From contig JASTWF010000069.1 in the NCBI GenBank assembly GCA_030390025.1, forward strand, positions 744,001-808,000: a DNA stretch of 64,000 nt, read 5' to 3'. Each line of letters starts with the position of its first letter. Within the stretch, counting starts at the first letter, position 1. This stretch comes from Squalus acanthias. Taxonomy: Eukaryota. The notes below the pieces were generated by a model. The model was not told the DNA's origin. It ran no database searches and saw nothing but the letters and a program-made list of their open reading frames with translations. The position numbers and the translations under genes are program-made. Below, one piece after another: positions 1-63,494 of the stretch.

Positions 1-3000
1 GTACTGCCCCTCCGACAGTGCGGCGCTCCCTCAGTACTGCCCCTCCGACAGTGTCGCACTCCCTCAGTAATGCCCCTTCGACAGCGCAGCGCTCACTCAG
101 TACTGCCCCTCTGATAGTGCGACGCTCCCTCAGTACTACCCCTCCGACAGTGCGGCGCTCCCTCAGTACTGACCCACCGACAGAGCGGTGCTCCCTCAGT
201 ACTCCCTCTCCGACAGTGCAGCGCTCCCTCAGTACTGCCCCTCCGACAGTGCGGCGCTCCCGCAGTACTGCCCCTCCGACAGTGCAGCGCTCACTCAGTA
301 CTGCCCCTCCGAAAGTGCGGCGCTCCTTCAGTACTGCCCCTCCGACAGTGCGGCGTTCCCTCAGTACTGCCCCTCCGACAGTGCGGCGTTCCCTCAGTAC
401 TGCCCCTCCGACAGTGCGGCGCTCCATCAGTAATGCCCCTCTGAAAGTGCGGCGCTCCCTCAGTACTGCCCCACCGACAGTGCGGCGCTCACTCAGTACT
501 GCCCTTCCGAGAGTGCGGCGCTCCCTCAGTACTGCCCCTCCGACAGTGCAGCACTCCCTCAGTACAAGCCCCTCAGACAGTGCAGCGCACCCTCAGTACT
601 GCCCCTCCGACAGTGCGGCGCTCCCTCAGTACTGCCCCTCCGACAGTGCAGCGCTCCCTCAGTACTGTCCCTCCAACAGTGCGGCGCTCCCTCAGTACTG
701 ACACTCCGACAGTGCGGCGCTTCATCAGTAATGCCCCTCTGACAGTGCGGCGCTCCCTCAGTGCCGCCCCTCCGACAGTGCGGCCCTCCCTCAGTAGTGA
801 CCCTCCAACAGTGCGGCGCTCCCTCAGTACTGCCCCTTCGACAGTGCAGCGCTCCCTCAGTACTGCCCCCTCCAGCAGTGCGGCACTCCCTCAGTACTGA
901 TCCTCCGACAGTGTGGCGCTCCCTCAGTACTGCCCCTCCGACAGTGCGGCGCTCCATCAGTAATGCCCCTCTGACAGTGCGGGGCTCACTCAGTACCGCC
1001 GCTCCGACATTGCAGCGATCCCTCAGTACTCCCTCTCCGACAGTGCAGCGCTCCCTCAGTATTGCCCCTCCGACAGTGCAGCGCTCCCTCAGTAATGCCC
1101 CTTCGACAGCGCAGCGCTCACTCAGTACTGCCCCTCCGACAGTGTGACGCTCCCTCAGTACAGCCCCTCTGACAGTGCGGCGCTCCGTCAGTACTGACCC
1201 GACGACAGAGCGGTGCTCCCTCAGTACTGCCCCTCCGACAGTGCTGCGCTCCCGCAGTACTGAGCTACGACAGTGCAGCGCTCACTCAGTCCTGCCCCTC
1301 CAACAGTGCAGCGCTCCTTCAGTACTGCCCCTCCGACAGTGCGGCCTTCCCTCAGTACTGCCCCTCAGACAGTGCGGCGCTCCCTCAGTACTGCCCCTCC
1401 GACAGTGTCGCACTCCCTCAGTAATGACCCTTCGACAGCGCAGCGCTCACTCAGTACTGCCCCTCTGACAGTGCGACGCTCCCTCAGTACTACCCCTCCG
1501 ACAGTGCGGCGCTCCCTCAGTACTGACCCACCGACAGAGCGGTGCTCCCTCAGTACTGCCTCTCCGACAGTGCAGCGCTCCCTCAGTACTGCCCCTCCGA
1601 CAGTGCGGCGCTCCCGCAGTACTGCCCCTCCGACAGTGCGGCACTCCCTCAGTACTGCCCCTTAGACAGTGCGGCGCTCCATCAGTAATGCCCCTCTGAA
1701 AGTGCGGCGCTCCCTCAGTACTGCCCCACCGACAGTGCGGCGCTCACTCAGTACTGCCCTTCCGAGAGTGCGGCGCTCCCTCAGTAGTGCCCCTCCGACA
1801 GTGCAGCACTCCCTCAGTACAAGCCCCTCAGACAGTGCAGCGCACCCTCAGTACTGCCCCTCCGACAGTGCGGCGCTACCTCAGTACTGCCCCTCCAACA
1901 GTGCAGCGCTCCCTCAGTACTGGCCCTCCGACAGTGCGGCGCTCCCTCAGTACTGCCCCTACGACAGTGCGGCGCTCCCTCAGTACTGGCCCTCCGACAG
2001 TGCGGCGCTCCCTCAGTACTGCCCCTCCGACAGTACTGCCCCTCCGACAGTGCGGCACTCCTTTCAGTAATGCCCCTCCGACAGTGCAGCGCTCACTCAG
2101 TACTGCCCTCCGACAGTGCGGCGCTCCATCAGTAATGCCCCTCTGAAAGTGCGGCGCTCCCTCAGTACTGCCCATCCGCTTGTGCGGCGCTCCCTCAGTA
2201 CTACCCCTCCGACAGTGCTGCGCTCCAGCAGTACTGCCCCTCCGACAGTGCGGCGCTCCCTCAGTACTGCCCCTCTGACAGTGCTGCGCTCCCGCAGTAC
2301 TGCCCCTCCGACAGTGCAGAGCTCACTCAGTACTACCCCTCCGACAGTGCGGCGCTCCATCAGTACTGTCCCTCCGACAGTGCGGCGTTCCCTCAGTACT
2401 GCCCCTCCGACAGTGCGGTGCTCCCTCAGTATTGCCCCTGCGACAGTGCGGCGCTCCGTCAGTCCTGCCCCTCTGATGGTGCGGCGCTCCCTCAGTACTG
2501 TCCCTTCGACCGTGCGGCACTCCCTCAGTACTGCCCCTCCGACAGTGCAGCGCTCCCTCAGTACAAGCCTCTCAGACAGTGCAGCGCACCCTCAGTACTG
2601 CCCTTCCGACAGTGCGGCGCTCCCTCAGTACTGCCCCTCCGACAGTGCAGCAGTCCCTCAGTACAAGCCCCTCAGACAGTGCAGCGCACCCTCAGTACTG
2701 CCCCTCCGACAGTGCAGCGCTCCCTCAGTACTGCTGCTCCAACAGTGCAGCGCTCCCTCAGTACTGTCCCTCCAACAGTGCGGCGCTCCCTCAGTACTGC
2801 CCCTCCGACAGTGCGGCGCTTCATCTGTAATGTCCCTCTGACAGTGCGGCGCTCCCTCAGTTCCGCCCCTCCGACAGTGCGGCGCTCCCTCAGTACTGAC
2901 CCTCCGACAGTGCGGCGCTCCCTCAGTACTGCCCCTCCGACAGTGCAGCGCTCCCTCAGTACTGCCCCTCCGACAGTGCAGCGCTCCCTCAGTACTGCCC

Positions 3001-3346
3001 CCTTCAGCAGTGCAGCGATCACTCAGTACAGCCATTCCGACAGTGCGGCGCTCCCTCAGTATCTCCCCTCCGAAAGTGCAGCGCTGCTTCAGTGCTGCCC
3101 CTCCGACAGTGCAGCGCTCCCTCAGTACAGCCCCTCCGACAGTGCGGCGCTCCCTCAGTCCTGCCCCTCCGATAGTGCGGCGCCCCCTCAGTACTTCCCC
3201 CTCCAACAGTGCAGCGATCCCTCAGTACAGCCATTCCGACAGGTCGGCGCTCCCTCAGTACTGACCCTCCGACAGTGCGGCGCTCCCTCAGTACCTCCCC
3301 TCCGACAGTGCAGCGCTCGCTCAGTACCGCCCCTCCGACAGTGCAG
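1..3346. repeat. 33-bp minisatellite (CAGTACTGCCCCTCCGACAGTGCGGCGCTCCCT)n, SINE-derived
   Basis: About 100 variant units; ends at the gtgcag|tcaaaaggagtaac junction with CR1. Confidence 0.97.
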
Positions 3347-6277
3347 TCAAAAGGAGTAACACGGAGGATTGATGAAGGGAATGCAATGGATGTTGTCTGC
3401 ATGAATTTTTGGAAGGCGTTTGACAAAGTACCACATAGAAGGCTGGTTAATAAAATTGAGGCTCATGGAATAGGTGGGTCAGTGGCAGCTTGGATTGGAA
3501 TTGGCTTCAGGACAGAAAACAGCGTGTTGTGGTAAATGGCTGTTTTTCAGACTGGAGGATGGTAGACAGTGGTGTTCCCCAAGGGTCACTGCTGGAGCCA
3601 CTGTTTTATTTGATATATATAAATGACCTGGATATTGGAATACAGAGTAGAATTTATAAATTTGCCGCTGACACCAAAGTTGGGTGTTGTAATGGATTCT
3701 GACCCTGCGTGTCTCGCAGCCTGTGAGATTCACGCGGCTCTGTGCAGCCTGTATGTCAGTGCGGGTCTAGGCCTTGTTGCCTGTTCTGGTCTCCAGCCAG
3801 TCTGGGAACACTAGACACACCTGTGAGTGGTTCGAATCACTCTCCCTTACGGTTCTAGACACTGGACTTAGATGCGAGAGCAGTAATGGAGATAAAACTC
3901 ATGTAGACTTGGTTTGAATGGTACGAAATGGAAAATCTTTATTGCATGATACTTAAGATTATGAAATACATGTCATAAGCACAGATTAATGACAGTACAA
4001 TCTTACAAACAGTTATATAGTCGATCTTAGGGAAACGAGGAACGAACGGCACAAAGTAAATAGGGGCACACATTACAAATATCCTTAATCCTTAAACCCT
4101 CCCCTATCAATATCTATCCTAAACTAGATTCGTAGGATTTCGAGACTCATGCTCACCACTCGTGATAACTCGGAGAAATTCCGAATAGCTGATCGGATGT
4201 TTTTCACCGCAGCACCCACGTGTCGGTCAGGAGATCTCCTGGTCCCACTTGTTTACTTGCTTCTACTGCTCCGGCTAGCAGGCTGGACCGTCTGCTGTGA
4301 TGAAGACCTGTGTTGGTTGGTTTAACAGGTACTCTTGGAGCACAGTTGTCAATATCGTCGATACGATATGTTTTCACATTCCAGTTACTTTGGGCACAGT
4401 CCAGTTATCATCGATGCAATATGTTTCGTTATAAGTTCGAAGAAGTCTTCCTAGCAAGGAAAACTTGGATAATCGACCTACAGGCGCGGTCGGGATTTAC
4501 TGACCGTGGCGATGGATATGGTCTTCCTCTCTTCTCATCTCATCTCATCTCATCTCGGGCCTTCAGTTCCGCTGCCAGTTACCAACATAGGTCTTCGTTA
4601 CGCGACACGAGGTAGATCCGAACGGATCAGAAAGTTCAACAGTCTTTTCAGAAGAGGCAACAGGCAAGCAGAAGCCCAACTACGAGTACACAGGAGCAGC
4701 CACGAGGTTACGAATCGACCGGATAAAAGCACAGGAGCAGCCACGATGATAAGAGCAGCAAGAGCAAGAGAGAGAATGGACGGTTTGGAGCCTGCAATTA
4801 TAGTGCAAAATCTTCCGTTTCCCGCCCAACTATAATGTCCATTCTTTTGTTTAGGGTTTGGCGCCCAAATGTCTTGTATGGGTGATCTCCGTTCTTAATG
4901 GGTTTCGGGGCTACTCGTAAATGTCTGAGTACCTGTTAATATTTCTCCCATTGTTAAATCGGTCGGTGTTCTCCCTGGAGGGGTTTGGGGCTTCCAAGTG
5001 TCCTGTATAACTACCTGCTAACGGCTCTCTCATCGTAGAGTCGTTGGGATTTTACATATTAATGTCTTTTGGATGGGCCCTCGGTACAATGGCTTTCCTT
5101 TGTACCTGGGAGACCGATTTCAGTATCTATGTGTATACTGCAAACCCATAATGTCTCGTGTATTATCTTCACTGTGCTGAATCTTAATCGATCTTGCACA
5201 AATGTTTATTGGAACGCCATCTTGTCTGCCTGTTGAAAAGTCTAGAATGTTCTGTCACGAGGTGCGGCGGCCATTTTACAGGCTGCTTGTGTCCACTTTA
5301 AACCTGCCAGCATTCTGCTGAAATAAAAGCTGTTTGAACGAAACTCTGTGTTTTCTCCTTATTAATAAAATCGCGATATATTGCGAATTCTACAGTGTGT
5401 GGCAAACAGTGACGATGATACCAATCGACTGCAACAGGACATAGAAAGGCTAGCAGAATGGGCAGACAAGTGGCAGATGGAATTTAATACAGAGTAGTGT
5501 GAGGTGATGTATTTTGGCAGAAGGAACACTTAATGCCACAGTTTTAAAGAGTGTGCAGGGACAGAGGGACCTGGGAGGTAATTTGCATCGGTTCCTGAAG
5601 GTGGCAGGACATATTGAGAGTGTGGTTAACAAAGCAAATGGGATCTTCGGCTTCATAAATAGAGGCATTGAGTACAAAAGTAGAGAAGTTATGCTGAACC
5701 TTTATAAAGCGCTGGTTAGGCCACAACTGGAGTATTGCGTCCAGTTCTGGTCACCACACTTTAGGAAGGATGTGAAGGCCCTTGAGAGGTTGCAGAGGAG
5801 ATTTACCAGAATGGTTCCAGGGATGGGGGATCTTAGCTACAAGGACAGGTTGGAGAAGCTGGATTTGTTTTCATTAGAGCAAAGGAGGTTGAGGGGTGAT
5901 TTGATAGAGCTGTACAAGATTCTGATGGGTTTGGATAGGCTAGACAGGGAAAGGCTGTTCCCACTAGTTGATGGTACAAGGACTAGGGGACACAGATTAA
6001 TGTTTTGGGCAAGAGATACAGAGGGAATGTGAGGAAAAATGTTTTTACGCAGCGAGTGGTGAGGACCTGGAACTCGCTGCCGACGGAAGTGGTGGAAGCG
6101 GAGACACTCAATGTTTTCAAGGGGAGACTGGATAGGCACTTGTGGGAAATAAACTTGCAGGGCTACGGGGATAGAGCGGGGGGAATGGGACTGACTGGAT
6201 TGCTCTACAGAGAGCCGGCACGGACTCGATGGGCCGAATGGCCTCCTACTGTGCAGTATGACTCTATGACTCTATGA
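3347..6277 (+). mobile_element. 5'-truncated CR1 LINE (RT plus 3' UTR), interrupted by a solo LTR
   Basis: RT motifs [15 protein letters not shown] and LVRPQLEYCVQFWSP; (TATGACTC)n tail; frameshifted. Confidence 0.93.
3688..5394 (-). mobile_element. 1707-bp solo LTR with 4-bp TSD (GTGT)
   Basis: TGTA...TACA termini. GTGT duplicated at 3684-3687 and 5395-5398. The empty site is seen in the paralogous CR1 near 18380. AATAAA on the - strand near 3940. Confidence 0.85.
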
Positions 6278-6544
6278 CCCTAGTGTATCAGAATGCAGAT
6301 AGTGGCGTGAGTTCTGACGGATCCTAATCCACTGTTCCTGCCTTGAAAGTCAGCACAGAATATACCTCAATGGGTGCATCATTTTGGCATTGTGTTGGGT
6401 GGAAGACTTCACTGAACAGGGTCCTGAGGTCTGTGAGCCAATATACAATGAACTTGTCCACTCCCGTGCCGAGGATTCCCTTCCATCCGTTGGTTGATGG
6501 AGCCATCTGTTGGGTCAAGAATTGTCTTCACATACAGAAACATT

Positions 6545-7308
6545 GGCCCAGAAATTTGACTCGGAGGCTTGCCGCGGGGGTAAGGATCGCGCGCGATCTT
6601 ACCTACCGCGCCTGCCGTTGTGTTTCGGGCCCACAGGATCTTCACGTCCTGGGCCTCTCCCTCGTGCCGGCGCGCAGTGTGTGCGTGTCCCAGGGGCGCA
6701 GTTAGTGCGATGCGACCTCTGGAATCACGTGGGCCATGGAGAGCCAATGGCAGCAGACCATCTTTCATTCATAGATTTGACAGGAGACCTGTCAAATCTA
6801 TGAATACAGATTGCCCCCAAAAGAACAGCTAAACATCAAATAAATTTTTTTAAAAACCGTCACATTAATAAAATAACTATAGTTAAATAAATTAACCACT
6901 TTAAACAAAAATTTAAATTTTTGAAAAAATTTAAATTCTTTTTAAAAGTTATAAAAATAAACTTACCTTTCTTTAAAGTCTCTAAAAAAGATAAACCTGT
7001 TGAAAAAAATGTAAAATTATACTTAATTAACTACTTACCTTGTTAAAAGGGGGTCTTACGCCTCCTTTTTACTTGTGTAAAATCTTCCATACTTACCCTC
7101 GCGTTGAAACCTGAAAAAAAACCTAAGTGTGCTGCGTGCGCGCAGCCTCTAGTGCGCACGCGGTTCACCTAGGAACCGCCCCCTTCGCCATACCGGAAGT
7201 GCCGGTTTCCCGCGCATGCGCAGTGCATGCAGGAAACCGGCACTTCGGGACCGAATACGGGTGAGTACACAACGGGTACTCTCCCGTATTCGGACGAATT
7301 TCTTGCCC
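6545..7308. mobile_element. MITE family A (non-autonomous DNA transposon)
   Basis: Imperfect TIRs GGCCCAGAAATT / AATTTCTTGCCC and an AT-rich core. The empty site is visible at ~57780 in copy 3. Confidence 0.8.
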
Positions 7309-7662
7309 AATATTGTGTGCTGAGGAAAAGGCACGAGGACAGGCGGGTGCGATGTCCACGGGCAAGGTGACTATGAGTCTGTCCGACATGTGGGTTCACT
7401 ATAATGCTCCCCAATCACAGAACACGGGGCGCAGTGTTTGATATTCATTCTTGGATTGTGTTGTCTGAGTAGCTCTTGTCCTTCTGGGTGGTAGAGGTCA
7501 CAGGGGAGGGCGGTGCTGTCAATGTAACCTTGGTGAGTTCCTTGTGTGTCCTGTAGATGGTCCACACTGCAGACACTGTGCGCCAGTGACGGAGGGGGTG
7601 GATATCGAGTCCAGTGGAGCGACAAGCCATCCAGTGCTAAATATTGATATTTCTCTCCCCAG

Positions 7663-8028
7663 CTGTATTGTCAGAGGAGTGGAAAGGCGAGACTCCACGA
7701 GAGGTGACAGCACAGGAAGGTTTGTGTGCACAGATTCCATGTCATTACACTTATCCATCGCGTCTGGCAAACCAACCACGAGTTGGAATCTGGATTAATT
7801 ATGGGGAACGGAGATCATCGTCTATAGCCTTTCACTCCAAGGATCACAATCACTCGTTGCCACAGTTTCGCCATCGGACACGGCTGTCTGGAGACCTGAG
7901 AGATGGTGACTGTTCCCTGATTATAAACAACATCACACAGCGAGACGCAGGACCTTATTATTTCAGAATAGAATTTGACAACTGGAATCAGTTTGACTAC
8001 TGGCCTGGAACACAGCTTCATGTTTCTG
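7663..8028 (+). CDS. Siglec V-set exon (copy 1)
   Basis: ctctccccag|CT GTA TTG ... TCT G|gtaagt, 366 nt, open. Siglec Cys pattern and YYFRIE are present. Confidence 0.93.
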
Positions 8029-8319
8029 GTAAGTGCTGGGTTATAATTACTCCACAATTCACGCTCAACAGTCAGTGGGAAATAACAGAAACTGTGGCGG
8101 TTACACATTAACACAAAACACAGCTTATTATAACACAGCGTCTGATTATCAATAACCTGGCGATACCTTCCAGTTCAGTCCTAAAGCAAACTCTAATACT
8201 CACTTTTTTATCAATGATTGAATGTCTTGACTGTGTCCATCATTGTTATCAGGTTATCGACTCCCATCTATCTCTCTAATTGTGTTTAAAAGTCTTACAT
8301 ACAGACAAAAGACAGTCTC

Positions 8320-8598
8320 ACATTTCTCCAGCACCTTTCACCACCTCAGGAGGTTCCAAAGCGCTTCACAGACAATGAAGTTCTTTTTTTGAAGTGTGGT
8401 CACTGTTGTAATGTAGGAAACATGGCAGCCAGTTTGTGCACAGCAAGCTCCCACAAACAGCAATGGGTTAATGAGCAGATCATCGGGTTTAACATTTCAA
8501 AAGTACTTCATTGGCTGTGAAGCGCTTTGGGACGTCCTGAGGTCTGAAATGCGCTGTAGCAATGCAAGTCTTTCTTTTAAATGTTGGTTGAGGGATAA
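8320..8598 (-). mobile_element. DeuSINE-type SINE 3' fragment (paralogues at ~22180-22457 and ~56500-56770)
   Basis: cacagcaagctcccacaaacagcaatg and ggttgagggataa motifs shared with other SINE copies in the window. Confidence 0.65.
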
Positions 8599-8829
8599 TT
8601 GCAAATTGTTTCTGTCCTGCCATGGAGAGGATTTAATTTAACATTGGCGGAGATCTCTGAGCGAGTGGAGAGCCAGTATTCCTGGGGCTGTGACCAGGTC
8701 CTCCACCCCCACCCAGTATTGTCAATTCAAGGGTCTCGGAGAGAAAGTGCATTATGCTCAGTGACAGAAACTCCGCCAATCCTGGAAATAGGAAATAATA
8801 TTTTCTTACAGATTCACACAAAGTTACAT

Positions 8830-9297
8830 AGAGTCTACCGCACAGAAAGAGGACATTCAGCACAACTGGTCCATCCCGGTGTTTATGCTCCACACCAGCC
8901 TCCTCCCACCCCTCTTCATCTCACCCCATCAACATATCCTTCTATTCCTTTCTCCCTCATGTGTTTATTCAGCTTCCCCTTAAATGCATCTCTGCTCTTC
9001 GCCTCAACCACTCCCTGTGGTAGCGAGTTGCCCATTCTCACCACTCTCTGGGTAAAGAAGTTTCTCCTGAATTCCCTATTGGATTTATCAGTGACTATCT
9101 TATATTGATGGCCCTTAATTCTGGTCTCCCCCACAAGTGGAAACATCTTCTCTACGTCTACCCTATCAAACCCTACCATGATTTTTTGGACCTCTATCAG
9201 GTCACCCCTCAGCCTTCTCTTTTCTAGAGAAAAGAGCCCCAGCCTGTTCAATCATTCCTGATTGTTGTAACCTCTCAGTTCTGGTATTATCCTTGTA
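8830..9297 (-). mobile_element. CR1 3' fragment in the V-C2 intron (paralogues 22690-23157 on -, 55055-55520 on +)
   Basis: LGLFSLEKRRLRGDLIEV...NFFTQRVV CR1 ORF2 C-terminus. Confidence 0.88.
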
Positions 9298-9387
9298 AAA
9301 GTACTTTCTCTTGCGGGACTGTGATTTCTATTTGAACTGATGCCTCAAGTTATATTTATCTAAAAGCATCCATTCTCTGTGTGTTAG

Positions 9388-9681
9388 ATTTCACAGATAA
9401 ACCCAGGATATTCCCTGCTGAAATGATTGCAGGAAAGCGTGTGAACGTAAGCTGCACCTTCAACACCACGTGCACTGGAACAGCACCTGTCTTAACCTGG
9501 GTCAATCACACTGACGTACCCGGGTCAGTCTCAAACAGTGTAACTCAGCATGGCGTCACTCTGACATATACTTCTGTTCTGTCCCTGATTCCATCACTCA
9601 AACACCACGGACAAACTCTCAGCTGCAGAGTCAGATATCCATCTGTTTCATCGGAGCAGACCCTCGCAGTCACTTTGCAAT
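9388..9681 (+). CDS. Siglec C2-set exon (copy 1)
   Basis: gtgttag|AT ... CAA T|gtaagt, 294 nt, open, phase 1/1. Confidence 0.93.
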
Positions 9682-9884
9682 GTAAGTACGGGCTTCCTTA
9701 ATTCTACATTCCCTGTGACAGTCCAGATTGTGCACAGCAAGATCCCACAAGCAGCAATGTTCCGATGACAAGATCATCTGTATTTTACAGCTGGAGCCTT
9801 TGTGGAATAGTGTCAGGGGGACATTTATATCCACCTGAGAGGGCAGACGGTGCCTCAGGTTATAAAATTCATGTGAAAGACGGC

Positions 9885-12800
9885 ACCTCCAACAGTGCGG
9901 CGCTCCCTCAGTACGGCCCCTCGGACAGTGCGGCGCTCGCTCAGTACTGCCCCTTCGACAGGTCGTGGCTTCCTCAGTAATGCCCCTCCAACAGTGCGGC
10001 GCTCCCTCAGTACTGCCCCTCCGACAGTGCGGCGCTCCATCAGTAATGCCCCTCTGACAGTGCGGGGTTCAATCAGTACCGCACCTCCGACAGTGCAGCG
10101 CTCTCTCAGTACTGCCTCTGCGACAGTGCAGCACTCCCTCAGTATTGCACTTCCGACAGTGCATCATTCCCTCAGTGCTCCCCCTCAGACAGTGCGGCGC
10201 TCCCTCAGTACTGCACCCCCGACAATGCGGCGCTCCCTCAGTACTGCCCCTCCGACAGTGCAGCGCTCCCTCAGTAATGCCCCTTCGACAGCGCAGCGCT
10301 AACTCAGTATTGCCCCTCCGACAGTGCGACGCTCTCTCAGTACTGCCCCTCCGACAGTGCGGCGCTCCCTCAGTACTGCCCCTCCGACAGTGCGGCGCTC
10401 CCTCAGTACTGCCCCTCCGACAGTGCAGCGCTCCATCAGTAATGCCCCTCTGAAAGTGCGGCGCTCCCTCAGTACCACCCCTCCGACAGTGCGGCGCTCC
10501 CTCAGTACCACCTCTCCGACAGTGCAGCACTCCCACAGCACTGCCCCCTCCGCCAGTGCGGTGCTCCCTCAGTACTGCCCCTCCGCCAGTGCGGCGCTCC
10601 CTCAGTACTGCCCCTCAGACAGTGCAGCCTACCCTCAGTACTGCTCCTCGGACAGTGCGGCGCTCCCTCAGTACTGCCCCTCCGACAGTGCGGCGCTCCC
10701 TCAGTACTGCCCCTCCGACAGTGCGGTGCTCCCGCAGTACTGCCCCTCCGACAGTGCGGCGCTCACTCAGTATTGCCCCTCCGACAGTGCAGCAATCCCT
10801 CAGTACTGCCCCTCCGACAGTGCAGCGCTCCCTCAGTACTGGCCCTCCGACAGTGCGGCGCTCCCTCAGTACTGCCCCTCCGACAGTGCGGCGCTCCCTC
10901 AGTACTGTTATCCGACAGTGCGGCGCTCCCTCAGTATTGCCCCTCCGATAGTGCGTCACTCCCCCAGTACTGACTCTCCGACAATGCGGCGCTCCATCAG
11001 TAATACCCCTTTGACAGTGCAGCGCTCCCTCAGTACCTCCCCTCCGACAGTGCAGCGCTCCCTCAGTACTGCCTCTCCGACAGTGCAGCGCTCCCTCAGT
11101 ACTGCCCCTCCGATAGTGCGGCGCTCCCTCAGTACTGACCCCCTGACAGTGCGGCGCTCCCTCAGTGCTGCCCCTCCGACAGTGCGGCACTCCCTCAGTA
11201 CTGCCCCTCCGACAGTGCAGCCGCTCCCTCAGTACTGCCCCTCCGACAGTGCGGCGCTCCCTTATTACTGCCCCCTCCGACAGTGCGGTGCTCCCTCAGT
11301 ACTGCCCCTCCGACTAGTGCGGCGCTCCCTCAGTACTGCCCCTCCGACAGTGCGGCGCTCCCTCAGTACTGCCCTCCGACAGTGCGGCGCTCCCTCAGTA
11401 CTGCCCCTCCGACAGTGCGGCGCTCCCTCAGTACTGCCCCTCCGACAGTGCGGCGCTCCCTCAGTACTGCCCCTCCGACAGTGCGGCGCTCCATCAGTAC
11501 TGCCCCTCCGACAGTGCAGGCGCTCCCTCAGTACTGCCCCTCCGACAGTGCAGGCGCTCCCTCAGTACTGCCCCTCCGACAGTGCGGCGCTCCCTCAGTA
11601 CTGCCCCTCCGACAGTGCAGCCTCCCTCAGTACTGCCCTCCGACAGTGCGGCGCTCCCTCAGTACTGCCCCTCCGACAGTGCGGCGCTCCCTCAGTACTG
11701 CCCCTCGGACAGTGCAGGCGCTCCCTCAGTACTGCCCCTCCGACAGTGCGGCGCTCCCTCAGTACTGCCCCTCCAACAGTGCGGCGCTCCCTCAGTACTG
11801 CCCCTCCGACAGTGCGGCGCTCCATCAGTAATGCCCCTCTGACAGTGCGGGGTTCAATCAGTACCGCACCTCCGACAGTGCAGCGCTCTCTCAGTACTGC
11901 CTCTGCGACAGTGCAGCACTCCCTCACTATTGCACTTCCGACAGTGCATCATTCCCTCAGTGCTCCCCCTCAGACAGTGCGGCGCTCCCTCAGTACTGCA
12001 CCCCCGACAATGCGGCGCTCCCTCAGTACTGCCCCTCCGACAGTGCAGCGCTCCCTCAGTAATGCCCCTTTGACAGCGCAGCGCTAACTCAGTATTGCCC
12101 CTCCGACAGTGCGACGCTCTCTCAGTACTGCCCCTCCAACAGTGCGGCGCTCCCTCAGTACTGACACTCCGACAGTGCGGCGCTCCCTCAGTACTGCCCC
12201 TCCGACAGTGCAGCGCTCCATCAGTAATGCCCCTCTGAAAGTGCGGCGCTCCCTCAGTACCACCCCTCCGACAGTGCGGCGCTCCCTCAGTACCACCTCT
12301 CCGACAGTGCAGCACTCCCACAGCACTGCCCCCTCCGCCAGTGCGGTGCTCCCTCAGTACTGCCCCTCCGCCAGTGCGGCGCTCCCTCAGTACTGCCCCT
12401 CAGACAGTGCAGCCTACCCTCAGTACTGCTCCTCGGACAGTGCGGCGCTCCTTCAGTACTGCCCCTCCGACAGTGCGGCGCTCCCTCAGTACTGCCCCTC
12501 CGACAGTGCGGTGCTCCCGCAGTACTGCCCCTCCGACAGTGCGGCGCTCACTCAGTATTGCCCCTCCGACAGTGCAGCAATCCCTCAGTACTGCCCCTCC
12601 GACAGTGCAGCGCTCCCTCAGTACTGCCCCTCCGACAGTGCGGCGCTCCCTCAGTACTGCCCCTCCGACAGTGCGGCGCTCCCTCAGTACTGTCCCTCCA
12701 ACAGTGCGGCGCTCCCTCAGTACTGCCCTCCGACAGTGAGGCTCTCCCTCAGTTCGGCCCCTCCGACAGTGCGGCGCTAACTCAGTACTGCCCATCCGCT

Positions 12801-15800
12801 GGTGCGGCGCTCCCTCACTACTGCCCCTCTGACAGTGCGGCACTCCATCAGTACTTCCCCTCCGTCAGTGCAGCGCTCCATCTGTAATGCCCCCTCCGCC
12901 AGTGCGGCGCTCCCTCAGTACTGCCCCTCCGACAGTGCGGCGCTCACTCAGTACTGCCCCTCCGACAGTGCAGCACCACCTCAGTACTGCCCCTCAGACA
13001 GTGCAGCGTACCCTCAGTACTGCCCCTCGGACAGTGCGGCGCTCCCTCAGTACCGCCCGTCCGACAATGCGGCCCTCCCTCAGTACCGCCTCTCCGACAG
13101 TGCGGCGCTCCCTCATTACTGCCCCCTCCGCCAGTGCGGTGCTCCCTCAGTACTGCCCCTCCGATAGTGCGGCGCTCCCTCAGTACTGCCCCTCCGATAG
13201 TGCAGCGCTCACTCAGTAATGCCTCTCAGACAGTGCGGCGCTCCCTCAGTACTGCCCCTCGGACAGTGCGGCGCTCCCTCAGTACTGCCCCTCCGACAGT
13301 GCGGCGCTCCCTCAGTACTGCCCCTCCGACAGTGCGACGCTCCCGCAGTACTGCCCCTCCGACAGTGCGGCGCTCCCTCAGTACTGCCCCCTCCGACAGT
13401 GCGGCGCTCCCTCAGTACTGCCCCTCCAATAGTGCGGCGCTCACTCAGTACTGCCTCTCAGACTGTGCAGCCTACCCTCAGTAATGCCCCTCGGACAGTA
13501 CGGTGCTCCCTCAGTACTGGTCCTCCGACAGTGCGGCGCTCCCTCAGTACAGGCCCACCGACTATGCGGCACTCCGACTATGCGGCACTCCCTCAGTAAT
13601 GCCCCTCTGACAGTACGGCGCTCCCTCAGTACTGCCCCTCCAACAGTGCAGCGCTCCCTCAGTACTGCCCCTCCGACAGTGCGGCGCTCCATCAGTAATG
13701 CCCCTCTGACAGTGCGGGGTTCAATCAGTACCGCACCTCCGACAGTGCAGTGCTCTCTCAGTACTGCCTCTCCGACAGTGCAGCGCTCCCTCAGTATTGC
13801 ACTTCTGACAGTGCATCATTCCCTCAGTGCTCCCCCTCAGACAGTGCGGCGCTCCCTCAGTACTGCACCCACGACAATGCGGCGCTCCCTCAGTACTGCC
13901 CCTCCGACAGTGCAGCGCTCCCTCAGTAATGCCCCTTCGACAGCGCAGCGCTAACTCAGTATTGCCCCTCCGACAGTGCGACGCTCTCTCAGTACTGCCC
14001 CTCCGACAGTGCGGCGCTCCCTCAGTACTGACACTCCGACAGTGCGGCGCTCCCTTAGTACTGCCCCTCCGACAGTGCAGCGCTCCATCAGTAATGCCCC
14101 ACTGAAAGTGCGGCGCTCCCTCAGTACCGCCCCTCCGACAGTGCGGCGCTCCCTCAGTACCGCCTCTCCGACAGTGCAGCACTCCCACAGCACTGCCCCC
14201 TCCGCCAGTGCGGTGCTCCCTCAGTACTGCCCCTCCGCCAGTTCGGCGCACCCTCAGTACTGCCCCTCAGACAGTGCAGCCTACCCTCAGTACTGCCCCT
14301 CGGACAGTGCGGCGCTCCCTCAGTACTGCCCCTCCGACAGTGCAGCGCTCCCTCAGTACTGCCCCTCCGACAGTGCGCGCTCCCTCAGTACTGCCCCTCC
14401 GACAGTGCGGCGCTCCCTCAGTGCTGTCCCTCCAAAAGTGCGGCGCTCCCTCAGTACTGCCCTCCGACAGTGCGGCGCGCCCTCAGTTCGGCCACTCCGA
14501 CAGTGCGGCGCTAACTCAGTACTGCCCATCCGCCGATGCGGCGCTCCCTCACTACTGCCCCTCTGACAGTGCGGCACTCCATCAGTACTTCCCCTCCGTC
14601 AGTGCAGCGCTCCATCTGTAATGCCCCCTCCGCCAGTGCGGCGCTCCCTCAGTACTGCCCCTCAGACAGTGCAGCGTACCCTCAGTACTGCCCCTCGGAC
14701 AGTGCGGCGCTCCCTCAGTACCGCCCCTCCGACAATGCGGCCCTCACTCAGTACCGCCTCTCCGACAGTGCGGCGCTCCCTCGTTACTGCCCCCTCCGCC
14801 AGTGCGGTGCTCCCTCAGTACTGCCCCTCCGATAGTGTGGCGCTCCCTCAGTACTGCCCCTCCGATAGTGCAGCGCTCACTCAGTAATGCCTCTCAGACA
14901 GTGCGGCGCTCCCTCAGTACTGCCCCTTGGACAGTGCGGCGCTCCCTCAGTACTGCCCCTCCGACAGTGCGGCGCTCCCTCAGTACTGCCCCTCCGACAG
15001 TGCGACGCTCCCGCAGTACTGCCCCTCCGACAGTGCAGCGTACCCTCAGTACTGCCCCTCGGACAGTGCGGCGCTCCCTCAGTACCGCCCCTCCGACAAT
15101 GCGGCCCTCCCTCAGTACCGCCTCTCCGACAGTGCGGCGCTCCCTCATTACTGCCCCCTCCGCCAGTGCAGTGCTCCCTCAGTACTGCCCCTCCGATAGT
15201 GCGGCGCTCCCTCAGTACTGCCCCTCCGATAGTGCAGCGTTCACTCAGTAATGCCTCTCAGACAGTGCGGCGCTCCCTCAGTACTGCCCCTCGGACAGTG
15301 CGGCGCTCCCTCAGTACTGCCCCTCCGGCAGTGCGGCGCTCCCTCAGTACTGCCCCTCCGACAGTGCGACGCTCCCGCAGTACTGCCCCTCCGACAGTGC
15401 AGCGCTCCCTCAGTACTGCCCCCTCCGACAGTGCGGCGCTCCCTCAGTACTGCCCCTCCAATAGTGCGGCGCTCACTCAGTACTGCCTCTCAGACTGTGC
15501 AGCCTACCCTCAGTAATGCCCCTCGGACAGTACGGTGCTCCCTCAGTACTGGTCCTCCGACAGTGCGGCGCTCCCTCAGTACAGGCCCACCGACTATCCG
15601 GCACTCCGACTATGCGGCACTCCCTCAGTAATGCCCCTCTGACAGTACGGCGCTCCCTCATTACTGCCCCTTCGACAGGTCGTGGCTCCCTCAGTACTGC
15701 CCCTCCAACAGTGCGGCGCTCCCTCAGTACTGCCCCTCCGACAGTGCGGCGCTCCATCAGTAATGCCCCTCTGACAGTGCGGGGTTCAATCAGTACCGCA

Positions 15801-18043
15801 CCTCCGACAGTGCAGTGCTCTCTCAGTACTGCCTCTCCGACAGTGCAGCGCTCCCTCAGTATTGCACTTCCGACAGTGCATCATTCCCTCAGTGCTCCCC
15901 CTCAGACAGTGCGGCGCTCCCTCAGTACTGCACCCCGACAATGCGGCGCTCCCTCAGTACTGCCCCTCCGACAGTGCAGCGCTCCCTCAGTAATGCCCTT
16001 TCGACAGCGCAGCGCTAACTCAGTATTGCCCCTCCAACAGTGCGACGCTCTCTCAGTACTGCCCCTCCGATAGTGCGGCGCTCCCTTAGTACTGCCCCTC
16101 CGACAGTGCAGCGCTCCATCAGTAATGCCCCACTGAAAGTGCGGCGCTCCCTCAGTACCGCCCCTCCGACAGTGCGGCGCTCCCTCAGTACCGCCTCTCC
16201 GACAGTGCAGCACTCCCACAGCACTGCCCCCTCCGCCAGTGCGGTGCTCCCTCACTACTGCCCCTCCGCCAGTGCGGCGCTCCCTCAGTACTGCCCCTCA
16301 GACAGTGCAGCCTACCCTCAGTAGTGCCCCACGGACAGTGCGGCGCTCCCTCAGTACTGCCCCTCCGACAGTGCAGCGCTCCCTCAGTACTGCCCCTCCG
16401 ACAGTGCGCGCTCCCTCAGTACTGCCCCTCCGACAGTGCGGCGCTCCCTCAGTACTGTCCCTCCGAAAGTGCGGCGCTCCCTCAGTACTGCCCTCCGACA
16501 GTGCGGCGCGCCCTCAGTTCGGCCACTCCGACAGTGCGACGCTCCCGCAGTACTACCCCTCCGACAGTGCGGCGCTCCCTCAGTACTGCCCCCTCTGCCA
16601 GTGCGGCGCTCCCTCAGTACTGCCCCTCCAATAGTGCGGCGCTCACTCAGTACTGCCTCTCAGACTGTGCAGCCTACCCTCAGTAATGCCCCTCGGACAG
16701 TACGGCGCTCCCTCAGTACTGGTCCTCCGACAGTGCGGCGCTCCCTCAGTACTGACCCACCGACTATGCGGCACTCCGACAGTACGGCGCTCCCTCAGTA
16801 CTGACCCTCCGACAGTGCGGCACTTCATCAGTAATGCCCCTCTGAGAGTTCGGCGCTCCCTCAGTACTGCCCCTCGGACAGTGCGGCGCTCCCTCAGTAC
16901 TGCCCCTCCGACAGTGCGGCGCTCCATCAGTAATGCCCCTCTGACAGTGCGGCGCTCCCTCTTTACCACCCCTCCGACTGTGCAGCGCTCCCTCAGTACT
17001 GGCCCTCCGATAGTGCGGCGCTCCCTCAGTACTGCCCCTCCGACAGTGCGGCGCTCCCTCATGACTGCCCCCTCCGCCAGTGCGGCGCTCCCTCAGTACT
17101 GCCCCTCCGACAGTGCGGCGCTCACTCAGTACTGCCCCTCCGACAGTGCAGCACCAACTCAGTACTGCCCCTCAGACAGTGCAGCGTACCCTCAGTACTG
17201 CCCCTCCGACAGTGCGGCGCTCCCTCAGTACCGCCCCTCCGACAGTGCGGCACTCCCTCAGTACTGCCCCTCCGACAGTGCGGCGCTCCCTCATTACTGC
17301 CCCCTCCGCCAGTGCGGCGCTCCCGCAGTACTGCCCCTCCGATAGTGCGGCACTCACCCAGTACTGCCCCTCAGACAGTGCAGCCTACCCTCAGTACTGC
17401 CCCTCGGACAGTGCGGCGCTCCCTCAGTACTGCCCCTCCGACAGTGCGGCGCTCCCTCAGTACTGCCCCTCCGACAGTGCGGCACTCCCTCAGTACTGCC
17501 CCTCCGACAGTGCTGCGCTCACTCAGTACTGCCCCCGGACAGTGCAGCGCTCCTTCAGTACTGCCCCTCCGAAAGTGCGGCGTTCCCTCAGTACTGCCCC
17601 TCAGACAGTGCAGCGCTCACTCAATACTGCCCCTCCGACAGTGTAGCGCTCCTTCAGTACTGCCCCTCCGACAGTGCGGCGTTCCCTCAGTACTGCCCCT
17701 CCGACGGTGCGGCGCTCCATCAGTAATGCCCCTCTGAAAGTGCGGCGCTCCCTCAGTACTGCCCCTCCGACTGTGCGGCGCTCACTCAGTACTGCCCCTC
17801 CGACAGTGCAGCTCTCCCTCAGTACCTGCCCCTCTGATAGTGCGGCGCTCCCTCATTCCTGCCCCTCCGACAGTGCGGCGTTCCCTCAGTACTGTCCCTC
17901 CGACAGTGCTGCACTCCCTCTGTACTGCCCCTCCGACAGTGCAGCGCTCCCTCAGTATTGCCCCTCCGACAGTGCGGCGCTCCCTCAGTGCAGCCATTCC
18001 GACAGTGCAGCGCTCCCTCAGTACCGCCCCTCCGACAGTGCAG
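9885..18043. repeat. 8.2-kb 33-bp minisatellite array with higher-order blocks, growing out of a SINE remnant (9730-9890)
   Basis: About 245 units. Starts at gaaagacggcacctcc of the SINE and ends at the same CR1 junction as 3346. Confidence 0.97.
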
Positions 18044-19395
18044 TCAAAAGGAGTAACACGGAGAATTGATGAAAGGAATGCAATGGATGTTGTCTACATG
18101 AATTTTTGGATGGCGTTTGACATAGTACCACATAGAAGGCTGGTTAATAAAATTGAGGCTCATGGAATAGGTGGGTCAGTGGCAGCTTGGATAAGGAATT
18201 GGCTTCAGGACAGAAAACAGCGAGTTGTGGTAAATGGCTGTTTTTCAGACTGGAGGATGGTAGACAGTGGTGTTCCCCAAGGGTCAGTGCTGGGGCCAGT
18301 GTTTTATTTGATATATATAAATGACCTAGATATTGGAATATAGAGTAGAATTTCTAAATTTGCCGCTGACACCAAACTTGGGTGTGTGGCAAACAGTGAC
18401 GATGATTCCAATCGACTGCAACAGGACATAGAAAGGCTCGCAGAATGGGCAGATATGTGGCCGATGGAATTTAATACACTGAAGTGTGAGGTGATACATT
18501 TTGGCAGAAGGAACAGGGAGAGGCAATATACACTTAATGGCACAGTTTTAAAGAGTGTGTAGGGACAGAGGGACCTGGGAGTTAATGTGTATAGGTTCCT
18601 GAAGGTGGCGGGACATATTGAGAGAGTGCTTAGCAAAGCAAATGGGATCTTGGGCTTCATAAATAGAGGTCATGATGTGGAGATGCCGGCGTTGGACTGG
18701 GGTGGACAAAAATGAGAAGTCGCACTGTAATTTTAAATAAATCTGTTGGACTATAACCTGGTGTTGTGCGACTTCTCATTTTCATAAATAGAGGCATTGA
18801 GTACAAAAGTAGAGAAGTTATGCTGAACCTTTATAAAGCGCTGGTTCGGCCACAACTGGAGTATTGCATCCAGTTCTGGTCACCACACTTTAGGAAGGAT
18901 GTGAAGGCCCTTGAGAGGTTGCAGAGGAGATTTACCAGAATGGTTCCAGGGATGGGGGATCTTAGCTACAAGGACAGGTTGGAGAAGCTGGATTTGTTTT
19001 CATTAGAGCAAAGGAGGTTGAGGGGTGATTTGATAGAGGTGTACAAGATTATGATGGGTTTGGATAGGCTAGACAGGGAAAGGCTGTTCCCACTAGTTGA
19101 TGGTACAAGGACTAGGGGACGCAGATTAAGGTTTTGGGCAAGAGATACAGAGGGAATGTGAGGAAAAATGTTTTTACGCAGCGAGTGGTGAGGACCTGGA
19201 ACTCGTTGCCGACGGAAGTGGTGGAAGCGGAGACACTCAATGTTTTCAAGGGGAGACTGGATAGGCACTTGAGGGAAATAAACTTGCAGGGCTACGGGGC
19301 TGGAGCGGGGGAATGGGACTGACTGGATTGCTCTACAGAGAGCCGGCACGGACTCGATGGGCCGAATGTGCTCCTTCTGTTCCACATGACTCTAT
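18044..19395 (+). mobile_element. 5'-truncated CR1 LINE, paralogue of 3347-6277
   Basis: Same 5' junction, RT motifs, stops. Confidence 0.93.
18670..18780. mobile_element. 111-bp insertion, probably a Penelope-like element terminus, with a 14-bp target duplication
   Basis: TTCATAAATAGAGG at 18656-18669 and 18781-18794. Internal inverted repeat AAAATGAGAAGTCGCAC / GTGCGACTTCTCATTTT. Family call is from recall only. Confidence 0.6.
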
Positions 19396-20131
19396 GGGGT
19401 AAAAATTGAGTCGCGCCCCATTTGGTGCGCTAACCTCGCCGGGGCGCGACTTTTAGCGCCCCGAAAAAATTAGCGGCCCCGCGCCGGAACTTCAGTGGTT
19501 GCGCCCCAAGAGGGAAGCGGGGCGCCACTGGAAGCACCCCGCATCCCTCTTGGGGCGCTGCGAGGGAATATCCTGGCGCCGCGGTATTGCAGGCCTTCCT
19601 CCCCTTCTTAAAGGGGAGGGACCCTGCGCAGCGCGAACCGGGGCCCAGCTGGGCCCCCAGGGATCGGGAGTGCCGGCAAAAGAGCCCGGCACTCAAGAGA
19701 AGTGCCGGGCTCTTGGAGCGCAGCCGGCACTTCACGGTGGGGGGGCTTCACGGGGGCCGGGGACAGCAACGGGGGCAGGTGCTGGCAGGCGGCCAGCAAC
19801 AAAAATGGCCGCCTGCCACCTCCCCTTTAAATATCGCCGCCCCGGCCGCACGTACGCCTCCCTGAACCCGTCGGACATAGCGTCTGGCGGTAAATCAGGG
19901 GGCGCGACTGAAGATCGCGGCTGGAGCGCGAGCGGGGTGCTGCACACGGCGATGACGTCATCGCCGGCGGCGCAGCGCCACAGGGCGCTACCGGCTGGCG
20001 CCGCCGCTAACCTCCCGCTGAATTTTTCGGGAGGCGTGGGCGGCGCTGCGCCCGGGCGTTAGCTGCTTTACGCCCCATTAGCGCCCTCTTAAGGCGCTAA
20101 CGGGAGGCGCAAGCAGCTGAATTTTTCCCCC
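19396..20131. mobile_element. MITE family B (GC-rich, PIF/Harbinger-like), 3-bp TSD TAT
   Basis: GGGGTAAAAATTGAG ... CTGAATTTTTCCCCC TIRs; TAT on both sides; inserted in the CR1 tail. Confidence 0.82.
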
Positions 20132-20403
20132 TATGACTCTAGTGATTCAGGATGGAGATAGTGGCGTGAGTTCTGACGGATCCTAATCCACTGTTCCTGC
20201 CTTGAAAGTCAGCACAGAATATACCTCAATGGGTGCATCATTTAGGCATTGTGTTGGGTGGAAGACTTCACTGAACATGGTCCTGAGGTCTGTGAGCCAA
20301 TATAGAATGAACTGTTCCACTCCCGTGCCGAGGATTCCCTTCCATCCGTTGGTTGATGGAGCCATCTGTTGGGTCAAGAATTGTCTTCACATACAGAAAC
20401 ATT

Positions 20404-21168
20404 GGCCCAGAAATTTGACTCGGAGGCTTGCCGCAGGGGTAAGGATCGCGCGCGATGTTACCTACCGCGCCTGCCGTTGTGTTTCGGGCCCACAGGATCT
20501 TCGGGTCCTGGGTCTCTCCCTGGTGCCGGCGCGCAGTGTGTGCGTGTCCCAGGGGCGCAGTTAGTGCGATGCGACCTCTGGAATCACGTGGGCCATGGAG
20601 AGCCAATGGCATCATGCCATCTTTCATTCATAGATTTGACAGGAGACCTGTCAAATCTATGAATACAGATTGCCCCCTAAAGAACAGCTAAACATCAAAT
20701 AAATTTAAAAATAAACCCGTCACATTAATAAAATAATTATAGTTAAATAAATTAACCACTTTAAAAAAAATTAAAATTTTTGATAAAATTTAAATTCTTT
20801 TTAAAAGTTATAAAAATAAACTTACCTTTCTTTAAAGGCTCTAAAAAAGAGAAACCTGTTGAAAAAAATGTAAAATTATACTTAATTAACTACTTACCTT
20901 GTTAAAAGGGGGTCTTACGCCTCCTTTTTACTTGTGTAAAATCTTCCATACTTAACCTCGCGTTGAAACCTGAAAAAAAACCTAAGTGTGCTGCGTGCGC
21001 GCAGCCTCTAGTGCGCACGCGGTTCACCTAGGAACCGCCCCCTTCGCCATACCGGAAGTGCAGGTTTCCCGCGCATGCGCAGTGCATGCAGGAAACCGGC
21101 ACTTCGGGACTGAATACGGGTGAGTACACAAGCGGGTACTCTCCCGTATTCGGACGAATTTTTGGGCC
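20404..21168. mobile_element. MITE family A (duplicate of 6545-7308)
   Basis: GGCCCAGAAATT / AATTTTTGGGCC TIRs at the same insertion site. Confidence 0.82.
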
Positions 21169-21520
21169 AATTGTGTGCTGAGGAAAAGGCATGAGGACAG
21201 GCGGGTGCGATGTCCACGGGCAAGGTGACTATGAGTCTGTCCGACATGTGGGTTCACTATAATGCTCCCCAATCACAGAACACGGTGCGCAGTGTTTGAT
21301 ATTCATTCTTGGATTGTGTTGTCTCAGTAGCTCTTGTCCTTCTGGGTGGTAGAGGTCGCAGGGGAGGGCGGTGCTGTCAATGTAACCTTGGTGAGTTCCT
21401 TGTGTGTCCTGTAGATGGTCCACACTGCAGACACTGTGCGCCAGTGACGGAGGGGGTGGATATCGAGTCCAGTGGAGCGACAAGCCATCCAGTGCTAAAT
21501 ATTGATATTTCTCTCCCCAG

Positions 21521-21886
21521 CTGTATTGTCAGAAGAGTGGAAAGGCGAGACTCCACGAGAGGTGACAGCACAGGAAGGTTTGTGTGCACAGATTCCATGT
21601 CATTACACTTATCCATCGCGTCTGGCAAACAAACCACGAGTTGGAATCTGGATTAATTATGGGGAACGGAGATCATGGTCTATAACCTTTCACTCCAAGT
21701 ATCACAATCACCTGTTGCCACAGTTTCACCATCGGACCCGGCTCTCTGGAGACCTGAGAGATGGTGACTGTTCCCTGATTATAAACAACATCACACAGCG
21801 AGACGCAGGACCTTATTATTTCAGAATAGAATTTGACAACTGGAATCAGTTTGACTACTGGCCTGGAACACAGCTTCATGTTTCTG
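21521..21886 (+). CDS. Siglec V-set exon (copy 2)
   Basis: Same splice sites as copy 1. Six aa differences from copy 1; essential Arg retained. Confidence 0.93.
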
Positions 21887-23247: not shown

Positions 23248-23541
23248 ATTTCACAGATAAACCCAGGATATTCCCTGCTGAAATGATTGCAGGAAAGCGT
23301 GTGAACGTAAGCTGCACCTTCAACACCACGTGCACTGGAACGGCACCTGTCTTAACCTGGGTCAATCCCACTGACGCACCCGGGTCAGTCTCAAACAGTG
23401 TAACTCAGCATAGCGTCACTCTGACATATACTTCTGTTCTGTCCCTGATTCCATCACTCAAACACCACGGACCAACTCTCACCTGCAGAGTCAGATATCC
23501 ATCTGTTTCATCGGAGCAGACCCTCGCACTCACTGTGCAAT
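23248..23541 (+). CDS. Siglec C2-set exon (copy 2)
   Basis: Same splice sites, 294 nt, open. Confidence 0.93.
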
Positions 23542-23744
23542 GTAAGTACGGACATCCTTAATTCTACATTACCCGTGAATGTCTACTTTGCGCACAGCAA
23601 GATCCCACAAGCAGCAATGGTTCTGATGTCAAGATCATCTGTATTTTACAGATAGGACTCTTCATTGAATAGTGTCATGGGATCTTTTCCATCCACCTGA
23701 GAGGGCAGACGTTCCCTCGGTGTAATGTCTCATGTGAAAGACAG

Positions 23745-63310: not shown

Positions 63311-63494
63311 ACTGCCACAGGATAGATTGAGGATTGTGTTAGGAACAGAGAACCCAGTCTGGCCTTGAGTTGATAAAGGGAAGTCTTTCAATTTTAGTTT
63401 ATTTTTTAAAGGAGAAATAATCTCAAATGGAATATAGGATCTGTCATTATGTTGTGTGAAATTTCTTTCCTTCCTATTTCTCAATCGTAATCTC

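Follow-up and report, generated by a model that had tools for sequence, protein, structure and literature searches.

Two hybrid CR1-type LINEs probably record one old unequal crossover behind the tandem V-C2 exon pairs of a Siglec-like gene in Squalus acanthias

Introduction

Tandem duplication mediated by L1Md_T elements, with a hybrid long interspersed nuclear element (LINE) left in the middle, is described for the mouse Abp genes in PMC3669608, which also cites an L1-mediated globin duplication in simian primates. Among immune receptors, PMC2816608 describes hybrid KIR genes with breakpoints in Alu or MaLR repeats, and PMC5701461 presents Siglec-11 and Siglec-16 as paired, inverted genes whose ectodomains are homogenised by gene conversion. 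CR1-type LINEs are listed for cartilaginous fish in PMC3747384. Here, we analyse a 64-kb stretch of the Squalus acanthias contig JASTWF010000069.1 (positions 744,001-808,000; hereafter the window, to which all coordinates refer), which holds two related Siglec-like genes arranged tail to tail. The plus-strand gene, predicted to be of the activating type, carries tandem units of a variable-set (V) and a C2-set exon, and two of these units are headed by hybrid LINEs, X1 and X2; the minus-strand gene, predicted to be inhibitory, carries a single such pair. We propose, with a probability of roughly 0.65, that X1 and X2 descend from one old unequal crossover between co-oriented CR1-type LINEs. Recombination between LINEs is the most economical reading of the two junctions that these copies share with others in the window.

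Results

Two LINE junctions are shared across V-C2 units

The LINE family is a 5'-truncated element without long terminal repeats (LTRs), in which copy a retains a match to the reverse transcriptase (RT) domain RVT_1 (E=3.5e-21). Its tails consist of 8-bp tandem repeats at the 3' end, with no poly(A). A 3' end in short (8-bp) tandem repeats without poly(A) is a criterion of the CR1 clade, and from such features we take the family to be CR1-type. The six main copies, with their nested insertions and a partial duplicate, are as follows.

3347..6277, plus strand: hybrid LINE X1, with a b-type 5' junction and an a-type 3' junction
3688-5394: insertion in X1, 1707 bp, TG..CA, 4-bp duplication
18044..19395, plus strand: hybrid LINE X2, 95.7% identical to X1
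18670-18779: insertion in X2, 110 bp, with a 14-bp duplication
19396..20131, no strand assigned: 736-bp terminal-inverted-repeat element in the tail of X2, with a 3-bp duplication
26976..27899, plus strand: LINE copy c, with its own junctions, used as a control
40584-41552, plus strand (region 40584..42694): LINE copy d, with an a-type 3' junction
51366..52599, minus strand: LINE copy b, with its 5' junction in a minisatellite
58051-~59596, minus strand (region 58051..59900): LINE copy a, bearing the RVT_1 match
59663-59900, minus strand: a2, a partial tandem duplicate of a

The minisatellites and introns into which the junctions fall are listed separately.

1..3346, plus strand: 33-bp minisatellite, cut by the window start
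6281..7662, plus strand: pre-V intron of unit 1, with an inverted-repeat element at ~6546-7310
9880..18043, plus strand: 33-bp minisatellite, 8.2 kb
20140..21520, plus strand: pre-V intron of unit 2, containing the larger part of a 364-bp tract that starts at 21170 and is shared without a difference with the inhibitory gene
23741..24337, plus strand: minisatellite of the last plus-strand unit, followed by a second LINE family (24338-~25300) and not by b
52600..54467, minus strand: minisatellite of the inhibitory gene

Copies a and b are co-oriented, 92.2% identical and placed around the V-C2 pair of the minus-strand gene, so that an earlier note on this DNA, which had them flanking V-C2 of the inhibitory gene (the one with an immunoreceptor tyrosine-based inhibitory motif, ITIM), is borne out by the coordinates. 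The same note had made the minisatellite 5' junction common to b and the LINEs at 3347 and 18044, and indeed the junction motif occurs three times in the window, at 3343 and 18040 on the plus strand and at 52603 on the minus strand. In b, X1 and X2 alike, the LINE joins the 33-bp minisatellite in the same phase, is truncated at the same base of the RT region and begins with a 10-bp tandem duplication of its first bases. Copies a, c and d do not begin at this truncation point; the 5' end of a lies ~300 bp beyond that of X, which means that a is more than a piece of X. In the window, such a 5' junction is confined to positions behind C2-minisatellite units, and at none of the five other array ends examined (24337, 47.9k, 48.8k, 62.6k, 63.2k) does the array adjoin this family. 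That three independent insertions should agree in phase, truncation and duplication is very unlikely, and we therefore regard the 5' junctions of b, X1 and X2 as the outcome of one event.

On the 3' side, the insertion site is common to a, d, X1 and X2, which would likewise descend from one event at that site. The pre-V sequence that follows had been called unique; it is present in four copies (6298, 20157 and 42477, and 58030 on the minus strand), one of them behind LINE d at 42477. Both hybrids combine the 5' junction of b with the 3' flank of a, as had been claimed, except that X2 is separated from its pre-V sequence by the 736-bp element and shows the a-type junction once that insertion is set aside. 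The boundaries of the V-C2 units coincide with the two LINE sites. The plus-strand array is not flanked by both parents: it ends in the second LINE family and the activating transmembrane (TM) exon, and its upstream end lies outside the window. A CR1-CR1 crossover behind the V-C2 duplication, as the earlier note had it, survives as the most economical account of both junctions, but the tandem units lie in a plus-strand gene that lacks b.

Base-by-base comparison of the LINE copies

We aligned the six copies over 1256 columns with nested insertions removed. X1 and X2 stand out by their mutual identity, the other 14 pairs falling between 91.6 and 94.0%, those with the unrelated copy c included; towards a, b, c and d, X1 and X2 are 92.6-93.6% identical, and X is no closer to a or b than it is to c. 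A switch from b-type to a-type single-nucleotide polymorphisms (SNPs) along the hybrids had been predicted, and a naive split on the sites where a and b differ does yield a late b-to-a change (P=0.043 for X1, 0.056 for X2). This breakpoint scan was rejected, because after column 1069 control d gives the same pattern as X1 (11 a-type to 2 b-type sites) and c a weaker one (10 to 4); the apparent switch is an artefact of an excess of private changes in the last 245 columns of b.

A better test polarises the alleles with other copies of the family. Six of the 42 b-derived alleles (columns 28, 65, 112, 292, 558 and 568) recur in X1 or X2, all of them among the first 18 and none among the 24 after (P=0.0035), and the 5' clustering persists when columns 28 and 112, polarised only by a and a2, are dropped (P=0.02). 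The recurring alleles include an Asp -> Asn change in the RT motif, beside a shared Trp: b, X1 and X2 read Asn-Phe-Trp, against Asp-x-Arg/Gln in a, a2 and a distant LINE. In maximum-likelihood (ML) trees, X groups with b in the 5' half (bootstrap 67; Shimodaira-Hasegawa-like approximate likelihood-ratio test, SH-aLRT, 93.6) and a stands beside X in the 3' half (55/66), which is the predicted direction with weak support. By sequence, then, the 5' half of X appears b-like up to ~5593 in X1 and 18597 in X2, and the 3' half a-like by its junction only, a pattern expected from an early crossover. The missing a-type SNPs do not refute a common origin, since a and d, which share an insertion site, are themselves only 93.1% alike.

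Several observations weigh against this reading. Only one of the 22 a-derived alleles recurs in X, at the ambiguously aligned column 1004, so that the predicted SNP switch shows in its b-type part (6/18, then 0/24) and is missing from its a-type part. Recurrence in one X copy also occurs as background, for 2/20 c-private and 6/29 d-private alleles (five of the latter six in one 43-bp patch of X2), and when both X copies are required, b-type recurrence falls to 3/18 versus 0/24 (P=0.07). For the first 140 columns, polarity comes from a and a2 only, and X1 agrees with a at columns 28 and 60. Approximately unbiased (AU) tests do not reject trees joining X to a over the 5' half, or X to b over the 3' half, and the terminal minisatellite repeats, taken as a lineage marker, lend weak extra support (rank 3/78 and 10/183). 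The private changes of b are concentrated in its last columns (14/245 versus 17/686, P=0.022 uncorrected), and its 3' end is fused to a LINE fragment that has lost its own 3' half; with this excess and this neighbour, b may itself be a chimaera. Finally, post-C2 identity to the inhibitory gene is 85.3% for unit 1 and 92.4% for unit 2, the opposite of what a crossover between paralogues predicts. Later conversion could explain the closer unit 2 region, as conversion is evident elsewhere: the pre-V sequences of unit 2 and the inhibitory gene show 0 differences in 349 bases (P=5e-8).

Separately, five alleles seen in no other copy are common to X2 (18454-18496) and d (40735-40777), all within 43 bp, and likely mark a short tract of conversion.

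A probable single early event followed by duplication of whole units

X1 and X2 share six derived sites that are absent from a, b, c and d (columns 315-1245). The inverted-repeat element in the pre-V intron is common to units 1 and 2, its copies differing at 26/764 columns, whereas the inhibitory gene has an empty site at ~57780. On the strength of their 95.7% identity, the six derived sites and the shared pre-V insertion, we regard X1 and X2 as copies of one hybrid. Units 1 and 2 as a whole differ at 128/2826 columns.

Efficient recombination in mammals needs a minimum of ~130-230 bp of identity. At their longest, perfect matches reach 63 bp for a against b, 170 bp for X1 against X2, 201 bp for unit 1 against unit 2 and 364 bp for unit 2 against the inhibitory gene, to which kilobases of minisatellite are added. 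Since the perfect matches between units are longer than that between a and b, the whole unit was the better substrate after the first duplication, and the LINEs were likely the seed of the array and not its standing engine.

The proposed course would begin with two young co-oriented LINEs, one downstream of C2 and the other upstream of V. An unequal crossover between them would place a second V-C2 module in line; if it came soon after the LINEs had inserted, few diagnostic SNPs would be expected, and the exchange itself would lie 3' of ~5593 (X1) or 18597 (X2), where the b-type alleles end. The 5' parent would be an ancestor of the 5' half of b, and the 3' parent an a-type copy, likely residing in an activating paralogue and not identical with a. 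The later step that gave X1 and X2 would have been an ordinary misalignment, of entire units or of their minisatellites, and gene conversion with the inverted inhibitory gene may still be acting on the V flanks. We favour the version with a crossover between paralogues, because the present layout (no b, an activating TM exon) follows from it in one step; had the crossover taken place within the inhibitory gene, the array would have had to be moved in a further step. Copy d shows that a-type paralogues exist on the plus strand: behind it lie an inverted-repeat element (41553-42451) and ~240 bp of pre-V sequence, and then no V exon.

The region around d can be described further. From 40584 to 43775, the LINE and the 240 bp of pre-V sequence without V are accompanied by a stretch 91-96% like 26184-26793, which lies behind the activating stop codon. 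The region may be what a deletion left of another activating gene, given that 43485-43775 matches 26184-26793, or it may consist of shared repeats. Copy d was also considered as a reciprocal deletion product and rejected, as it has the a-type 3' flank and not that of b.

Alternative explanations

The alternative that survives best, though we judge it unlikely, is a non-homologous tandem duplication, by end joining or template switch, that ran from the minisatellite to the middle of LINE a and made X, with b becoming a chimaera afterwards, when a deletion joined X to a third LINE located behind C2. Such a duplication predicts the same two junctions and the same sharing of b and X on the 5' side only; the excess 3' divergence and non-contiguous flanks of b fit a chimaeric b, and a 10-bp duplication at a junction is also compatible with end joining. 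It takes four events (a, duplication, third LINE, deletion) against three, however, and the 5' half contains no robust allele common to a and X, the only candidate being column 60, in X1 alone.

Much less probable is a strong version of the earlier note's reusable accordion, in which the inhibitory gene's a and b serve as a permanent substrate, each hybrid arises by its own crossover, and deletion alleles recur. The co-orientation of a and b around V-C2 and the naive split P values speak for it, but controls d and c reproduce that switch, owing to the private changes of b, and X1 and X2 are sisters, which already contradicts separate crossovers for these two. The perfect match of at most 63 bp between a and b, set against 201-364 bp between units, and the position of the array in the other gene, which lacks b, leave the reusable accordion unsupported. 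The reciprocal product, a deletion of V-C2, finds no support in the window either, as none of the six main copies is such a product.

We give very little credence to independent insertions at preferred sites (the minisatellite and the pre-V sequence) without descent. Reuse of a site is seen for the inverted-repeat elements of X2 and d, which are ~71% alike at their ends, but the same truncation base, 10-bp duplication and RT-motif changes would be needed three times, the 5' ends of a, c and d are different, and this LINE is missing at the five other array ends. Least credible is an assembly artefact placing two haplotypes in series, for which multi-kilobase minisatellites between units give an opening, since the units differ at 128/2826 columns, X1 and X2 carry different nested insertions, and each of two haplotypes would still need the hybrid junction.

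Two tail-to-tail Siglec-like genes

The exons of the two genes are as follows.

7663..8028, plus strand: V-set exon 1, Siglec-like, F-strand Arg present
9388..9681, plus strand: C2-set exon 1
21521..21886, plus strand: V-set exon 2
23248..23541, plus strand: C2-set exon 2
25973..26166, plus strand: TM exon of the plus-strand gene, with Arg and a short tyrosine-free tail, putatively of activating type
61675..61714, minus strand: leader exon of the inhibitory gene, with an N-terminus as in shark homologues
57065-57430, minus strand: V exon of the inhibitory gene
54665-54958, minus strand (region 54665..57430): C2 exon of the inhibitory gene
49551-49647, minus strand: TM exon of the inhibitory gene
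48999-49080 and 47320-47562, minus strand (inhibitory region 47320..49647): tail exons of the inhibitory gene, with LLYASI and TEYAEI

The minus-strand gene splices with AG/GT sites into a 373-aa open frame of leader, V, C2, TM and tail, and the plus-strand gene, also with AG/GT sites, into a 503-aa open frame of V-C2-V-C2-TM whose start lies upstream of the window. The TM segment of the latter carries an Arg and is followed by a short tail without Tyr, and the tail of the former contains LLYASI and TEYAEI (ITIM plus distal Tyr type); the two genes would accordingly be of the activating and the inhibitory type, as judged from these motifs. No second TM or tail exon was found between the plus-strand units by tblastn, no second leader copy in a masked self-BLAST of the window, and an Rfam scan returned 0 matches. 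A further V-C2 unit upstream of the window is suggested by the array at 1..3346, because in the other three units the 33-bp array comes after the C2 exon.

Among the matches listed (112 in one search, the best 120 of 140 in another), the V and C2 exons match shark and ray proteins only, with best identities to the listed proteins of 74% for V and 89% for C2. The V domains have MAG, Siglec-5, CD33 and sialoadhesin as best matches, and all of the top 18 matches are Siglec-family chains. The F-strand Arg is kept, with YYFR of the inhibitory V (Vi) and V2 aligning with MAG and Siglec-5, and the same motif in V1. The V domain of Siglecs typically contains three Cys, and their first C2 domain one Cys more than usual; the inhibitory protein follows this pattern (Cys 35, 40, 97 and 158, 164, 215), with its disulphides putative. 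The order of one V-set followed by C2-sets is found in the inhibitory gene, and is departed from in the plus-strand gene if both units are spliced in. We name the genes Siglec-like, with sialic acid binding putative.

Probable gene conversion, and domain number in elasmobranchs

Between the activating and the inhibitory gene, the V flanks (21170-21886 vs 57065-57781) differ at 6/621 bases and include the 364-bp perfect tract, whereas the V exons differ at 30/366 (P=9e-9 vs flanks), mostly in loop regions and just after the Arg. This contrast suggests conversion that spares the ligand site, or selection that diversifies it. An excess of nonsynonymous over synonymous change (dN>dS) in V between the partners was not significant (26/282 vs 4/81, P=0.26).

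We also surveyed 147 homologous elasmobranch gene models from NCBI/UniRef, which are automatic models and not transcripts. One V is present in 109, several V before one C2 or none in 31, no V in five and repeated V-C2 in two. In one of these last two (P0015), a TM lies between the pairs, and it looks like two fused genes; the other (P0113, from the stingray Hemitrygon akajei) comprises five or more V-C2 pairs, whose V domains agree at 117-119 of 121 positions. In two shark models (P0001 and P0002), 6-7 V domains in tandem stand ahead of a single C2, another independent expansion within the family. The Arg-TM motif is present in 9/147 homologues, and both tail types are present in the family. 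A quick tree was built from 76 V domains, three of them from the window and 73 taken from 35 selected proteins. The window domains cluster together (SH-aLRT 96), and so, separately, do those of P0113 (100), which makes the two expansions independent. The family thus shows variation in domain number irrespective of any part played by this LINE pair.

Other repeats in the window

At 59580-59972, a tandem duplication has copied the 5' end of a together with its flank; the duplicate, a2, has an internal deletion, is ~90% identical and adjoins a 28-bp minisatellite. The inverted-repeat elements in the tails of X2 (19396-20131) and d (41553-42451), which are remote relatives of each other, sit at the same LINE-tail base. 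One shared insertion was considered and rejected, because only their ends align (~71%); the coincidence reflects either target preference or replacement of one insertion by another. Pieces of the second LINE family at 24338-25300 and 50860-51369 are complementary halves with a ~55-bp overlap, one lying after the minisatellite of the activating gene and the other cut by b, and are either a coincidence or an inversion scar.

The 33-bp minisatellite is embedded in a SINE-like (short interspersed nuclear element) sequence whose head is present at 47637-48896 and 62430-63325 and absent behind the C2 exons; its arrays range from 0.6 to 8.2 kb, and minisatellites with periods of 50, 43, 28 and 7 also occur in the window. 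At 34444-36915, within a complex GC-rich satellite-like block (31662-40420), lies an LTR-type retroelement with 238-bp terminal repeats 98.7% identical and a coding region that is apparently shortened.

Discussion

Taken together, the earlier reading of these LINEs is probably correct for what is an old event of a known kind, with its forward-looking claim unsupported. A wider scenario, which we hold only tentatively and think rather doubtful, is that one CR1-CR1 crossover between an inhibitory and an activating gene added V-C2 modules to the activating receptor and gave a lectin with several V-sets whose module number still varies between individuals, as part of an accordion of domain number in an undescribed family of paired shark and ray receptors (Vn-C2 in many species, (V-C2)n in the window and in a stingray), in which conversion homogenises the flanks while the ligand loops of V diverge. 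The locus adds a cartilaginous-fish, CR1-type, intragenic case, with both putative parents and two hybrids within 64 kb. It also illustrates a pitfall, namely, that a naive parent-switch scan can yield a nominal P of ~0.05 from the private mutations of one parent. The larger lead is that of paired inhibitory and activating elasmobranch Siglec-like receptors with variable V or V-C2 number. A literature search, with subscription journals mostly outside its reach, found no dedicated paper on shark Siglecs and no paper on LINE-driven duplication of immunoglobulin (Ig) exons.

The mechanism is established, by mouse Abp and the globin L1 case, and the locus is new. The primate globin case reportedly concerns gamma-globin, with elements named L1a, L1b and L1ba. 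Its logic of three elements, a, b and a b/a hybrid between the copies, is that of the shark locus, but there L1 duplicated a gene, and here a CR1-type LINE would have duplicated a domain pair. Like mouse Abp, the shark locus combines two flanking LINEs, a tandem duplication and a hybrid middle LINE. In Abp, 384 and 127 divergent sites on either side of the breakpoint switch cleanly, and the event is very recent; whole genes were copied, whereas the shark event is old, its SNP switch is mostly absent, and an intragenic exon pair was copied.

The KIR hybrids resemble the shark case as an immune receptor cluster with breakpoints located in repeats. The KIR repeat occupies corresponding positions in the two paralogues, and the number of domains does not change; the shark repeats lie at different positions, so that domain number changes. 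Siglec-11 and Siglec-16 (PMC5701461) are likewise inverted inhibitory and activating partners subject to conversion, but they are arranged head to head and the shark pair tail to tail, and their conversion includes the V exon, whereas the shark V differs at 30/366 bases and its flanks at 6/621. The definition of a Siglec in that paper, one V-set plus C2-sets, contrasts with the at least two V-C2 pairs of the plus-strand shark gene. The elasmobranch Siglec-like models have the same V (at most 74% identical) and C2 (at most 89%), and 31/147 repeat only V (Vn-C2). The stingray P0113 has (V-C2)n, as does the window.

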